DNA of 64,000 nucleotides, taken from NCBI GenBank assembly GCA_963731735.1, contig CAVSWO010000002.1, positions 529 through 64,528 of the forward strand, in the 5' to 3' direction. The position numbers and the translations under genes were made by a program. Origin of the DNA: Candidatus Kerfeldbacteria bacterium. GTDB taxonomy: Bacteria > Patescibacteriota > Patescibacteriia > SBBC01 > CAIJZX01. Shown here piece after piece: positions 22,936-58,287 of the stretch; position 1 is the stretch's first letter; each line of letters opens with the position of its first letter. Below the pieces are notes generated by a model. The model searched no databases. It had not been told where the DNA came from and saw only the letters and a program-made list of their open reading frames with translations.

Positions 22936-23100
22936 TAGCGAAAGCGGCCGTCCGAGTGACGGACGTCTTCGCAATCGGGAGTCGGCAGGGATTCGAACGG
23001 GCAGAAGCGACCGAGCAAAGCTCGGGAGCGTCGATGAGCCGCCAGTGGCGGGTCGGCGCTGCCCAGGACAACGAGCCCCGCGAAAGCGGGGTGAGGCGGA

Positions 23101-33113: not shown

Positions 33114-34493
33114 ATGCTGAAGCTCTATAATACGTTGACGCGTAAACTCGAAGCCTTCAAACCGCGCCAGGGGAAGCTGGTTGGGATGTATACCTGCGGA
33201 CCGACCGTATATAACACCGCTCATCTCGGCAATCTTCGGACCTATATTTTTGAAGATATTTTACGTCGAACGCTAGAATTTGATGGGTACACCGTCAAGC
33301 ATGTCATGAATGTGACCGATGTCGGGCATTTAACCAGCGACGCGGATACCGGCGAAGATAAAATTGAGGCCCAGGCCAAAAAAGATCACCAGTCTGCGCA
33401 CGATATCGCGGCCGTGCACGCCAAAGAATTTTTTCTCGATTTAACTCGGCTGAATATTTTGAAGCCGACGACGGTACTCTATGCCACCAAAACCATTGAT
33501 CTGCAAATCGCCTTGGTCGCGCAACTGGAAAAACAAGGGTATACTTACGTGACACCCGACGGCGTCTATTTCGATACCGCAAAGTTTTCACGGTATGGTC
33601 AACTCAGCGGCCAACGGGCTCAGGATAAAAAAGCTGGCGCCCGGGTGGAAATCAATCCCGATAAACACCACCCAAGCGATTTCGCGCTTTGGAAATTTTC
33701 CAAACCCGAAGATCACCGGCAAATGGAGTGGGACAGTCCCTGGGGTCGCGGTTTCCCGGGCTGGCACCTGGAGTGCTCCGCCATGTCGATGCACGAACTC
33801 GGTCCGCAATTCGATATCCACTGCGGCGGCGTTGATCATATTCCGGTCCACCATGAAAACGAAATTGCTCAAAGCGAAGCGGCGACTGGAAAACATCCGT
33901 TCGTGAAATACTGGCTGCACGGTGAATTTATGCAGCTGCCGGACAAGCGGATGGGGAAATCCGAGGGCAACGCGATTACCCTGCAGAACGTGATTGATAA
34001 AGGGATTGATCCTTTAGCGTTCCGGTATCTCGCACTCCAAACCCATTACCGCCAAAAAATGAATTTTAGTTGGGAGGCGTTGGAAGCGGCGGCTCAGGGC
34101 CTCAAAGATTTACAGGTACGCGTTTCCGACCTGGGCTCGGAAGCGAAAATTGGTTGCGCCGAATTTGAACAAGAATTTCAATCCTCCATCAATGATGATC
34201 TCAATACCGCCAAAGCACTGGCAGTCGTTCAAGAAACACTGAAATCGGAATATCCAAATCCCGCAAAACGGCAAAGCTTGAACATCATGGATCAGATTCT
34301 TGGGCTGGGTTTCCAGACACTTCAAAAACCAGAATTTACAATTCCGGCTGAGACACAAAACCTGCTTGATCAACGCGAGCAGGCCCGCCAGCAGGGTGAC
34401 TTTGTGATGGCGGATAAGCTCCGCGCACAAATCTTGAAAGCCGGGTACGCCATCGAGGATACCGAGCAGGGTCCGCGCTTGCGGAAAAAGTAA
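33114..34493 (+). CDS. cysS: Cysteine--tRNA ligase.
   Basis: HIGH-type motif (HLGNLRTY), KMSKS-type motif (KMGKSEGN) and zinc-binding Cys residues. 459 aa. Confidence 0.9.
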   Translation: MLKLYNTLTRKLEAFKPRQGKLVGMYTCGPTVYNTAHLGNLRTYIFEDILRRTLEFDGYTVKHVMNVTDVGHLTSDADTGEDKIEAQAKKDHQSAHDIAAVHAKEFFLDLTRLNILKPTTVLYATKTIDLQIALVAQLEKQGYTYVTPDGVYFDTAKFSRYGQLSGQRAQDKKAGARVEINPDKHHPSDFALWKFSKPEDHRQMEWDSPWGRGFPGWHLECSAMSMHELGPQFDIHCGGVDHIPVHHENEIAQSEAATGKHPFVKYWLHGEFMQLPDKRMGKSEGNAITLQNVIDKGIDPLAFRYLALQTHYRQKMNFSWEALEAAAQGLKDLQVRVSDLGSEAKIGCAEFEQEFQSSINDDLNTAKALAVVQETLKSEYPNPAKRQSLNIMDQILGLGFQTLQKPEFTIPAETQNLLDQREQARQQGDFVMADKLRAQILKAGYAIEDTEQGPRLRKK

Positions 34494-34518
34494 AAACCAC
34501 GTACAGTAGCCCAGCTTT

Positions 34519-34695
34519 ATGTCTGCAAACTTTTGGCATTCATTGCCACGGCCAATCCTGGCGCTCGCACCGATGGAAGGGTCGAGCCGGTCGGCCGTAG
34601 GCCGAGCACATAAACTGCTTCATGTGCGACCGGCGAGACGGGCGCGGCGATGCTTCGCAGGAGCCGACGCGCCCCGGAAGGATTCATTGTCATGA
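34519..34695 (+). CDS. 58-aa ORF whose first 21 residues copy the Dus N-terminus (MSANFWHSLPRPILALAPMEGS...), upstream copy A.
   Basis: Manual translation. Its stop TGA overlaps the next ATG (ATGA). Confidence 0.4.
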   Translation: MSANFWHSLPRPILALAPMEGSSRSAVGRAHKLLHVRPARRARRCFAGADAPRKDSLS

Positions 34696-34874
34696 GTAAA
34701 GATTTTTGGAAAAAGTTACCAAAGCCAATACTAGCTTTAGCCCCGATGGAAGGGTCACGGCGGCCGATAGAGCGAGTGAACTGCTTCACTCGCGTGCCGC
34801 CGCGACGGGTGACGCTATGTTCCAAGGGAACGAGCGGCACCCGGGCCCCTGGAATTGGAGCGAGCATTTCATGA
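34692..34874 (+). CDS. 60-aa ORF with the Dus-like N-terminus (MSKDFWKKLPKPILALAPMEGS...), copy B.
   Basis: SD-like GGAAGGA upstream and an ATGA overlap with the dus start. Its N-terminal codons differ from copy A mostly at synonymous sites. Confidence 0.45.
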   Translation: MSKDFWKKLPKPILALAPMEGSRRPIERVNCFTRVPPRRVTLCSKGTSGTRAPGIGASIS

Positions 34875-35891
34875 ACAATTTTTGGAAATCACTCCCACGG
34901 CCAATCCTGGCGCTTGCTCCAATGGAAGGGGTCAACGACACCGCTTTCCGGCAACTGTGTAAACAGCACGGCGCGGATTTGGTGTATACCGAATTCGTCG
35001 CGGCCGACGCGATTGTGCACGAAGCCAAACGTACCATGGGTCGCTTGCGATATGACCCGGCAGAACAGCCGGTGATTGCGCAAATCTTTGGGCGTAATCC
35101 TGAATCGTTTCGGGCGGCCGCCAAAGCGATTGACCAGATGGGTTTTGCCGGCTTGGATATTAATTTCGGCTGCCCGGCTCGTAAGGTAGTGCATCGCGGA
35201 GAAGGCGTGGCCCTGCTGCGCGAACCGGCATACGCGCGCCAGCTGATCGAAATCGCGCTCGAGAGTGTGACGATTCCGGTTTCGATCAAAATCCGGACCA
35301 GTATTCGGGCCGAACGGAAAGAAGTTCAAGACGGCGCCGAAAACCACACCGCCCTGGATTTTATTGAGGCCGTCGGAGATTTACCGATCGCAGCAGTAAT
35401 GATTCACGGCCGCGCTTTCGAGCAAGGTCATCAAGGCGATGTCGACACCGCCATGATCAAAGCCGTCAAACAACACTTCAACGGTCTGGTCTTAGCCAAC
35501 GGCGGGATATTCACTCCGGAACGGGTGGTCAGTATGCTGCAGGAAACCGGTGCCGACGGCGTCGGCATCGCGCGCGGGACCTGGGGCAGTCCCTGGATTT
35601 TTTCCCAAGCCCGGCAGTTGCTTACGACCGCGCGATTATGATCCGGTTTCCTGGGAGACGATCAAGCAGACCATGCTTGAGCATGCCCGGCTGAATTTTG
35701 AACTCAAGGGCGAGCATGGACTGGTCGAATTACGGAAACATCTGGCCAAGTATATTACCGGCTGGCACGGCGCCCGCCATTTCCGAGCCCAGGCAGTTCA
35801 GGTCAAAACACTCAACGATGTCGACCAACTCGTACAAGACATTGAAGCGCGCCGTGAAGTAGCGGCAAAACAAAAAACGGATTACAGATGA
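34871..35891 (+). CDS. tRNA-dihydrouridine synthase (Dus family), with a 1-nt frameshift in a CGCGCG run near 35629-35634.
   Basis: MNNFWKSLPRPILALAPMEGVNDTAFRQLC... is a Dus TIM-barrel. The C-terminal helical domain (DYDPVSWETIKQTMLEHAR...) continues in the +1 frame as ORF 35550..35891. Confidence 0.75.
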
Positions 35892-35952
35892 TCGGACTCT
35901 GCCCGTCCTGAGTTACTCCCCTGGCTCACACCTGCTGCCGCGGCAGTTGGTG

Positions 35953-58017: not shown

Positions 58018-58170
58018 CCTCCACGACTCGCGACCCGACGGGTTCCCGCTCGTCGCTCCCCCGAAGCCGGGGTTCCTCTCCGAGTGCCACCGGCACTCGT
58101 TTCGGATACCCTTCGAATCCAGGTCTCAATCGCCAGGATGCCCGACCGCGAGGGTCGGCCACTCTGGCGA

Positions 58171-58248: not shown

Positions 58249-58258
58249 AAGCAGCAGC

Positions 58259-58287
58259 ACTCTACAGGAAAAAATCCATAAAATCAA
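58259..58287 (-). promoter_or_regulatory. Promoter TTGATT-N17-TAGAGT for tRNA-Glu.
   Basis: Minus strand TTGATTttatggattttttcctgTAGAGT, 10 nt before the tRNA 5' end. Confidence 0.6.

Follow-up and report, generated by a model that had tools for sequence, protein, structure and literature searches.

In the 64,000-nucleotide (nt) stretch of Candidatus Kerfeldbacteria DNA considered here (contig CAVSWO010000002.1; hereafter, the window), the 5' end of dus, the gene that encodes the tRNA-dihydrouridine synthase, carries two tandem units of a structured repeat, named element E. The copies of this element form a family with a conserved structure and recurrent genomic contexts, and the copies located in dus conserve both an open frame and the ATGA overlaps of stop and start codons that link it to the next start. 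The interpretation that we favor, with a probability of about 0.6, is that E was inserted into the 5' end of dus, and that this insertion is tolerated through a relay of translation termination and reinitiation. Neither Rfam nor the literature searched describes element E, which is usually tied to the tRNA genes of the Patescibacteria.

Three starts of the dus gene

Codons 1-21 of dus are present in the window as three in-phase copies (A, B, and C), with starts at 34519, 34692, and 34871. The first-pass annotation of this DNA had reported three consecutive open reading frames (ORFs) with near-identical starts of 21 residues, linked by ATGA, and all three are found at these coordinates, with the shared start M..(N/D)FW..LP.PILALAPMEG. 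Both of the junctions between the ORFs are ATGA stop/start overlaps (TGTCATGAGT and TTTCATGAAC), with the ATGs at 34692 and 34871. The features of the array are given below, where L numbers denote loci of other genomes, GC3 is the GC content of the third codon positions, and R1 is the covariance model of element E.

34519..34581, forward strand: copy A of dus codons 1-21 (MSANFWHSLPRPILALAPMEG), which runs on from the native cysS-dus spacer, with a 5' flank that matches the E-less relative L005
34519..34695, forward strand: mini-ORF A, 58 amino acids (aa), which crosses the element E_A, and whose TGA overlaps the ATG of copy B
34579..34678, forward strand: element E copy A (E_A, subtype A), R1 score 82.8 bits, E-value = 1.7e-13
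34679..34691, forward strand: spacer A (AGGATTCATTGTC), with a 3' end, TTCATTGTC, that matches the leader native to dus in L031 and L035
34692..34754, forward strand: copy B of dus codons 1-21 (MSKDFWKKLPKPILALAPMEG), AT-rich, GC 0.40, GC3 0.38
34692..34874, forward strand: mini-ORF B, 60 aa, which crosses E_B, and whose TGA overlaps the dus ATG
34752..34846, forward strand: element E copy B (E_B, subtype B), R1 score 85.6 bits, E-value = 5.2e-14
34847..34870, forward strand: spacer B (CCCTGGAATTGGAGCGAGCATTTC), homologous to the spacer of L027, with an inverted repeat

A repeat search recovers the same array as a 54-nt family of three copies, spaced by 173 and 176 nt, in which copies B and C are 70% and 85% identical, respectively, to copy A. 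Over the 17 codons that can be aligned, copies A and B differ by 14 nt and 3 aa, copies B and C by 14 nt and 2 aa, and copies A and C by 7 nt and 1 aa, so that most of the differences between the copies are synonymous, which agrees with the earlier reading of the sequence. A comparable layout is present in three independent assemblies of one relative (L002, L003, L004) and in four further genomes, and this recurrence rules out an assembly artefact as the source of the triple start. Spacer B pairs in part with codons 15-21 of copy C.

Structure of element E

The tails of the two mini-ORFs are no diverged dus leader, but two diverged copies (subtypes) of a structured repeat element of approximately 95-105 nt, other copies of which lie at tRNA genes. 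The covariance model R1, which has 93 positions and 24 base pairs, matches 24 copies in the loci examined, and the window holds exactly two. The general order of the element is GGGUCGAG, helix P1, hairpin P2, CGAGACGGG, hairpin P3, and then GCCC-NGG(A), where P1 contains either tandem G.A/A.G or G-C/C-G, the P2 apex (UGAACUGCUUCA) is nearly invariant across the copies, and P3 has a conserved UG bulge. The make-up of E_A is GGGUCGAG, P1, an extra hairpin, P2 (apex AAACUGCUUCA), CGAGACGGG, P3, and CCCCGGA. The covarying hairpin that had been noted in the tails, in which GCACAU...AUGUGC is replaced by GCGAGUG...CACUCGC around (A/G)AACUGCUUC, is the P2 of this larger conserved structure.

In the alignment of the E copies, 95.5% of the cells are paired, and compensatory changes are found in 17 of the 24 pairs. 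The covariation score is 0.536, in comparison with 0.05-0.07 in the slid-partner controls, and none of 500 shuffles reaches the observed values. The fold check recommended for the tails of the window also gave stable structures in both cases (-52.7 and -60.3 kcal/mol; z = -2.0 and -3.7 relative to shuffled sequences). The count of G-U pairs (11) versus A-C pairs (6) does not settle which strand folds, and it is the sense orientation of E relative to its host genes that suggests folding as RNA. A search for additional pseudoknot covariation gave nothing convincing.

The E region has no relevant match in Rfam at an E-value <= 10, whether scanned as 2.2 kb or as 131 nt, while ARAGORN called no tRNA or transfer-messenger RNA (tmRNA) in the region of the dus start. 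A literature search on the invariant loop sequence and on the repeat elements of the Candidate Phyla Radiation (CPR) returned unrelated matches only.

A 116-aa ORF on the minus strand of the window (34517-34867) covers both copies of the element and has no Pfam match; it is most likely an artefact of the GC-rich repeat sequence. A 158-aa minus-strand ORF is also called in the enlarged cysS-dus gap of L002 (1689-2165), upstream of its dus copy and E.

Element E in dus loci and the origin of the array

The dus comparison covered 13 cysS-dus loci of a Kerfeldbacteria-like clade, including the window, in which seven E units are found in six loci. The arrangement thus recurs upstream of dus in further genomes, as the first-pass annotation had proposed to verify, and is distributed as follows.

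E present after Gly21 of dus: the window (two units), L002, L026, L027, L031, L032
E absent from dus: L001, L005, L033-L037

Each dus unit opens with a copy of the dus sequence between about -10 and Gly21, followed by E, and then a short spacer. In L002, for example, which has a Dus 76% identical to that of the window, there is one extra copy of the dus 5' end with a tail that ends in ATGA. The Gly21 codon next to E is always GGG, while the E-less genes have GGT, GGC, or GGA, which is consistent with an element that starts at GUC after GG. The dus site itself (ATGGARGG followed by NGTCA) resembles the 5' end of E, GGGTC(G/A).

The two elements of the window are 58% identical to one another. 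The nearest sequence to E_A is the E of the L002 dus locus (91% identical), and the nearest to E_B is the E of the L032 dus locus (83%), followed by that of the L007 tRNA-Pro locus (78%). Copy B stands apart in its composition, with a GC3 of 0.38 versus 0.56-0.62 in its neighbors, is preceded by the sequence that forms the native dus leader of L031 and L035, and comes closest to the downstream, functional copy of L002, from which it differs at 11 of 45 nt by hand count. Given these affinities, together with the composition and leader of copy B, the array consists of two units of different origin, most likely stacked either when a second element entered copy B, at a time when that copy was functional, or when two alleles with E recombined.

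Other origins were discarded. Local tandem duplication or slippage, including the slippage-generated expansion that had been suggested initially, is at odds with two subtypes that share 58% identity and are each closer to copies in other genomes. A diversity-generating retroelement (template and variable repeats) was rejected on the basis of the differences between copies B and C, 7 of 16 of which, read by eye, lie at non-A positions of B. The only basis for deriving the tail from decayed dus codons 22-52 was one 9-mer in common (GCCGACGCG), and this derivation was dropped once the tail proved to be shared with the tRNA loci.

There is also a consequence for annotation, given that called dus products often begin at the internal methionine of the MEG motif. 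A protein search found this start in many relatives, with or without E at the locus, and in six of 10 loci checked (L001, L005, L033, L034, L035, and L037) it is a choice of the gene caller, with no E present. In L036, which also lacks E, the called product starts later, at MAFRTL. A search for related loci over the species genomes, with the Dus protein as the only query, produced no match.

Reading frame, stop/start overlaps, and the proposed relay

The tails of the two window units (A and B), L002, L027, and L026 measure 110, 116, 113, 140, and 155 nt, respectively, all 2 mod 3, and in all five, frame 0 is open and its stop codon is the TGA of the ATGA overlap. In L031, which has a tail of 112 nt, the mini-ORF ends in an ATGA that opens a six-codon ORF, the TGA of which overlaps, in turn, the dus ATG. 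Frame 0 is open in six of the seven dus-associated copies of E and in two of the 13 tRNA-associated copies (Fisher p about 0.004), and the second codon begins with A, as ATGA requires, in all seven downstream copies and in five of the 13 first or solo copies (p about 0.01); both values are our own calculations, and are optimistic, since some of the instances share ancestry, although the indels that separate them are nonetheless all multiples of three. The earlier proposal that the mini-ORFs are translated and coupled by ATGA is thus supported, at the level of the sequence, by the six of seven units that are open and end in a TGA over the next ATG. The tails of subtypes A and B read the invariant motif in different frames (AAA CUG CUU CAU versus GUG AAC UGC UUC), and it is the openness of the frame that is conserved, rather than the peptide of the tail.

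A conserved motif upstream of the first start provides a candidate promoter for the array.

34479..34507, forward strand: putative dus promoter, with a -35 box TTGCGG (34479-34484) in the last cysS codons, a 17-nt spacer, and a -10 box TACAGT (34502-34507)

The putative -10 box of the window ends 11 nt before the first ATG, and in eight related loci, with or without E, the motif TTGCGN-17-TA(G/C/A/T)(A/T)GT ends 8-13 nt upstream of the dus ATG, or of the first one where there are several, which is probably indicative of a dus promoter and a near-leaderless mRNA. The spacers before the downstream ATGs contain no consistent Shine-Dalgarno sequence and no promoter-like motif.

If the motif is a real promoter, the dus leader would be roughly 0-6 nt long, and initiation would occur at a 5'-terminal AUG. 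The insertion of E would then leave the real dus ATG in an internal position, with no consistent Shine-Dalgarno sequence to serve it. In the proposed relay, ribosomes would load at the 5'-terminal AUG, read through the dus fragment and on into E, the frame of which is open, and terminate at the UGA within AUGA, where the next AUG would serve for reinitiation, with these steps being repeated until dus is reached. The termination-reinitiation mediated by ATGA overlaps is an established mechanism of coupling (PMC6728339), and we infer that the relay is a selected function.

The tRNA-Glu gene of the window has a TAGAGT 10 nt before its 5' end (58249-58268, minus strand), of the same -10 type as the TACAGT of dus. 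The presence of similar hexamers 10-11 nt upstream suggests that very short leaders may be the rule in this organism.

Element E in tRNA genes

A tail pattern, composed of motifs that the three tails have in common, had 20 matches in a scan that covered one genome for each species. Thirteen of these are true E copies, all in or beside tRNA genes, seven from metagenome-assembled genomes (MAGs) of Patescibacteria and six from five MAGs labelled "uncultured Gammaproteobacteria", while the other seven are chance matches in coding DNA. Altogether, 24 E copies are found in MAGs of the Patescibacteria type, and all 17 copies outside the dus loci are in or beside tRNA genes. Individual genomes may hold several copies, with two in the window, four in two 8-kb loci of one Kerfeldbacteria contig (L021, L022), and three in two loci of another contig (L009, L012). 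None of the three matches to the tail pattern in viral contigs was confirmed by the covariance model, and BLAST searches of both tails against phage and plasmid collections found no match.

Every copy outside dus lies directly 3' of GG, and the host sequence continues, in three clean cases, one base past the T after GG; the intron-like interrupted cases show no duplication beyond GG. The orientation is sense to the host gene, with a single weak exception (L009:778-884). In one arrangement, found in L007, L009, L010, L011, L012, and L013, the order is a tRNA 5' fragment, E, a spacer of 16-66 nt, and a complete tRNA, with fragments of 11-48 nt that start 0-9 nt upstream of the mature 5' end (the L013 fragment matches the gene at 38 of 38 positions). 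In a second arrangement, found in L006, L014, L017, and L022 (two copies), an interrupted and decayed second copy, with E in the D-loop, the variable region, or the T-arm, lies downstream of an intact tRNA. In L021, E interrupts a tRNA-Thr from which T54-T55 are missing, with no intact copy within 8 kb. The decay of the interrupted genes, of which L014 keeps only positions about 8-46, L022:745 has an internal deletion, and L006 has a mismatched acceptor stem, led, together with the L021 case, to the rejection of a self-splicing or excised tRNA intron.

Several of these loci have further peculiarities. In L022:640-1350 (Kerfeldbacteria JACPSJ010000001.1), two E copies are interleaved with three tRNA-Arg 3' ends (CGAATCCCTCAGGGCGC), and there is also a diverged fourth tRNA-Arg 3' end (GGATTCGAATCCTGCCGAGCGC), which looks like serial insertion or a recombination hot spot. 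A third E copy lies beside the tRNA-Pro of the same locus (2123-2221). The tRNA-Pro 3' fragments that follow E in L006:3636-3700 (minus strand) and L022:2222-2250 (GTTCGAGTCTCGGTACCCCGACCA, with CCA encoded) are nearly identical to one another and differ from the resident tRNA-Pro of each genome, a pattern suggestive of fragments that move together with the element. The "Gammaproteobacteria" label of the five MAGs is suspected to be wrong, given the tRNA-Arg/tRNA-Pro linkage and the foreign tRNA-Pro 3' fragment that L006 has in common with the Kerfeldbacteria locus L022.

Complementary leader and trailer sequences of 9-17 nt surround tRNAs in the E-carrying MAGs (L013:1375-1480, L007:5474-5600, and L024, minus strand, about 2400-2510; for example, GTAAAACTTTGG...CCAAAAGTTTTAC), and would lengthen the acceptor stem in the tRNA precursor. 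In the window, the tRNA-Gln and tRNA-Glu genes (22936-22995 and 58111-58170, minus strand) are each followed by a long GC-rich hairpin and then by a short stretch that repeats their own T-arm in inverted orientation (GGCAGGGATTCG and CCTGGATTCGAAG).

We infer that E is mobile. On its left side, the duplicated host segment begins between the -10 box and the start of the gene, a position that is compatible with a transcription-linked process, and equally so with selection for the shortest duplication that restores the gene. A bolder proposal, which we consider unlikely although worth stating, is that E represents a new class of mobile structured RNA or DNA element of the Patescibacteria, inserted by a transcription- or RNA-linked process after GG (typically before U) in highly expressed genes, and copying the host from about the transcription start to the insertion point, which would regenerate an intact gene downstream. 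Such an element might be ribozyme-like or might guide recombination, with the upstream gene fragment serving as a homology arm for its spread by recombination.

Conservation of the upstream peptide

The upstream copies have a rate of non-synonymous substitution (dN) of about 0.14 and a rate of synonymous substitution (dS) of about 1.8-1.9, which gives a ratio (dN/dS) of about 0.08, the same as in the downstream and solo copies. The PILALAPMEG segment is unchanged, save for one L-to-I substitution, despite about 6.5 nt differences per 30 nt. The upstream 21-residue peptide is thus under apparent purifying selection, as judged from these rates. The argument made earlier, from the synonymous divergence of the three copies of the window to selection on the mini-ORFs, is not supported as it stands: the divergence alone is no proof, as the copies may stem from different alleles, in view of the GC3 of copy B and of its leader, which resembles that of another lineage. 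The upstream peptide nonetheless evolves under the apparent purifying selection described above. Possible causes of the conservation include homology-arm selection, in which the copy is kept matching the functional dus, cycles of loss and regain, the removal or bypassing of the insert, and a function of the mini-protein; the last two rank low, since the frame and ATGA have been maintained, the interrupted tRNA genes have decayed, and the two subtypes encode unlike tail peptides.

Weighing the interpretations

A number of observations weigh against an inserted element tolerated by a relay. The relay gives no reason for the conservation of the upstream peptide (PILALAPMEG) in the face of saturated synonymous change, and is not obligatory, given that the mini-ORF frame of L032 has three stops, with the ORF cut short after 24 codons, and no relay. 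The dus of the window is itself frameshifted, and the system may already be decaying. A generic promoter scan misses the dus motif, the -35 box of which matches at only three of six positions, and its conservation is the sole basis for the promoter. Nothing was found that would account for the mobility of E: there are no terminal inverted repeats (the ends, GGGUCGAG and GCCCNGGA, are not complementary) and no target-site duplication of fixed length, with the duplicated host segment ranging from about 11 to about 73 nt. An all-against-all comparison of the ORFs within the 8-kb loci likewise gave no recurrent protein family, such as a transposase, near E.

The spacer of L032 (1127-1152) is AT-rich (ACATAAATAATCAAACAAC) and lies right before the dus ATG, with the geometry of the native -10 box, and may be a newly evolved promoter.

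The alternative that survives best, improbable as it appears, is that E is a cis-regulatory RNA of the host, such as a riboswitch, an attenuator, or a protein-binding leader of dus and tRNA operons, with the mini-ORFs being leader peptides that sense or modulate its fold. The strongly conserved fold, with its invariant loop and junction nucleotides, the constant position of E either 5' of an intact gene or inside a tRNA operon, in the sense orientation, and the fact that both dus and the tRNAs are part of tRNA biology are all in keeping with this proposal. It leaves aside, however, the host-gene fragments that precede E and the E copies inside decayed tRNAs, the patchy presence of the element among close relatives (six of 13 dus loci), and the stacking of two subtypes at a single locus. 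Similarly, the copy at L009:778-884 lies upstream of the promoter and antisense to the adjoining tRNA, and the frame of the tail peptide differs between the subtypes; the regulatory upstream ORF or decoy role that had been offered for the mini-ORFs has found no specific support.

It is quite improbable that E, the spacer, and the downstream 5' copy are removed or skipped, with Dus being made from the upstream N-terminus, which could occur by RNA excision between identical ...AUGGARGG sites, by ribosomal bypassing from Gly21 to the downstream Gly codon, or by DNA deletion between direct repeats. The upstream copies do evolve like functional N-termini, the insert is bounded by direct repeats that end in the same Gly codon, a strong hairpin starts exactly at that codon, and close relatives have E-less alleles. 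A conserved frame and ATGA would, however, be needless in this case, and the 173-218 nt to be skipped far exceed any known bypassing, the bypass of T4 gene 60 being 50 nt. The truncation or decay of the E-interrupted tRNA copies argues against splicing, and no group I or other ribozyme model matches E.

Still less can be said for a function of the 58-73-aa mini-proteins themselves (a Dus N-terminal strand with an Arg-rich tail) as a decoy, a regulator, or an RNA binder, which is very improbable. The apparent purifying selection on the first 21 residues of the upstream copies and the open ORFs in six of seven units would fit, but the tail peptides are unrelated between the subtypes, vary from 36 to 51 residues in length, and have no Pfam match, and the ORF of L032 ends after 24 codons. 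A search for homologues of mini-ORF A gave no candidate, a result that reflects the limit of the word index. Finally, recent debris of tandem duplication or slippage, with frames left open by chance in GC-rich DNA (such DNA is often stop-free, as are 17 of the 39 frames counted in the tRNA-associated copies of E), is hardly credible for units that are only 58-70% identical to each other and each closer to the copies of other genomes, with five tails that differ by multiples of three only, a conserved ATGA, and a structure that covaries.

The dus gene and its neighborhood

The dus gene of the window is split between two frames.

34871..35641, forward strand: dus (tRNA-dihydrouridine synthase), first frame, from copy C; Pfam PF01207 positions 2-229, E-value = 5.9e-60
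35550..35891, forward strand: C-terminal part of dus, in the +1 frame; Pfam PF01207 positions 241-306

The frameshift lies near 35620-35641, at a site that is not a homopolymer, and the Dus of the relatives is encoded in one frame, with 325-346 aa. It represents either an assembly error or pseudogene formation and decay in the source genome. An intact 346-aa Dus is found downstream of E in L002, and a gene in this arrangement can thus be functional. The nearest homologues of Dus carry the name Candidatus Kerfeldbacteria or Patescibacteria. The gene order is cysS, dus, and a 198-aa protein with no Pfam match, with dnaJ on the other strand. In the relatives L001, L002, and L005, a DUF5666-like gene (221-245 aa, minus strand) lies between dus and a membrane protein of roughly 195 aa, and this gene is missing from the window (35892-35952).

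Significance

The genomes of the CPR are generally thought to be poor in mobile DNA. A conserved and covarying element of approximately 95 nt, tied to tRNA genes, is of interest in these small genomes. The dus loci would represent a natural experiment, in which a near-leaderless gene is kept working after an insertion in its 5' end by a chain of stop/start overlaps. Should E prove to move by an RNA-linked mechanism, or to be catalytic, it would constitute a novel type of mobile element in bacteria. The dus locus combines a small, structured, non-autonomous repeat with ATGA coupling, both of which are of known kinds, and there is a modest chance that E is categorically new.

Comparison with known systems

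Element E is similar in many respects to the Rickettsia palindromic elements (RPEs), the repetitive extragenic palindromic (REP) sequences and bacterial interspersed mosaic elements (BIMEs), the Correia repeat enclosed elements (CREEs), the enterobacterial repetitive intergenic consensus (ERIC) sequences, and the miniature inverted-repeat transposable elements (MITEs), which are likewise roughly 100-150 nt in length, highly structured, multi-copy, and protein-less, and may be translated through inside genes. As with MITEs or elements derived from insertion sequences, the copies of E are dispersed within genomes and patchy among relatives. Unlike the RPE, REP, and MITE families, however, E has neither terminal inverted repeats nor, within the 8-kb loci, a recurrent neighbor of the transposase type, and it strongly favors tRNA genes, at sites immediately 3' of GG, next to a 5' piece of the host gene and an intact copy of it. 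RPEs occupy coding genes in frame, and are also inserted in tmRNA, whereas the E copies in dus are bridged by stop/start overlaps rather than being kept in frame within the protein.

The integrative elements that target tRNA genes, which carry a tRNA segment in their attP site, also leave an intact gene and a partial duplicate, and may leave serial fragments, as in L022. These elements span kilobases and encode an integrase, and the part of the tRNA that they duplicate is the 3' one, whereas E is about 95 nt long, has no integrase nearby, and duplicates the 5' part.

Group I introns are at least 200 nt in length. Those found in the tRNA genes of the Patescibacteria (Nakagawa et al. 2026, PMC13011429) share the phylum, the host genes, and the sense orientation with E. 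Element E differs from them in its length of about 95 nt, the absence of a group I match in Rfam, and the decay of the tRNAs that it interrupts, as well as in its insertion sites, which are in the D-loop, the anticodon loop, the variable region, and the T-arm, rather than at site 35/36.

In the bypass elements, such as T4 gene 60 and the "byps", a coding insert is also tolerated at the level of translation, with matching Gly codons at its edges and a take-off hairpin. Mobile byps occur in the mitochondria of Magnusiomyces. The inserts considered here are 173-218 nt long and have no stop after the take-off codon, however, and their open frame and ATGA point to reinitiation.

The closest parallel for the relay itself is found in the ATGA termination-reinitiation and upstream ORFs of bacteria (Huber et al. 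2019, PMC6728339), in which the stop and start codons overlap, and the downstream start has no consistent Shine-Dalgarno sequence. What distinguishes the dus loci from this form of coupling is that the upstream ORFs are not genes in their own right, but pieces left over from dus itself that have become joined to a repeat, and that they are arranged in series, with two steps in the window and two in L031.

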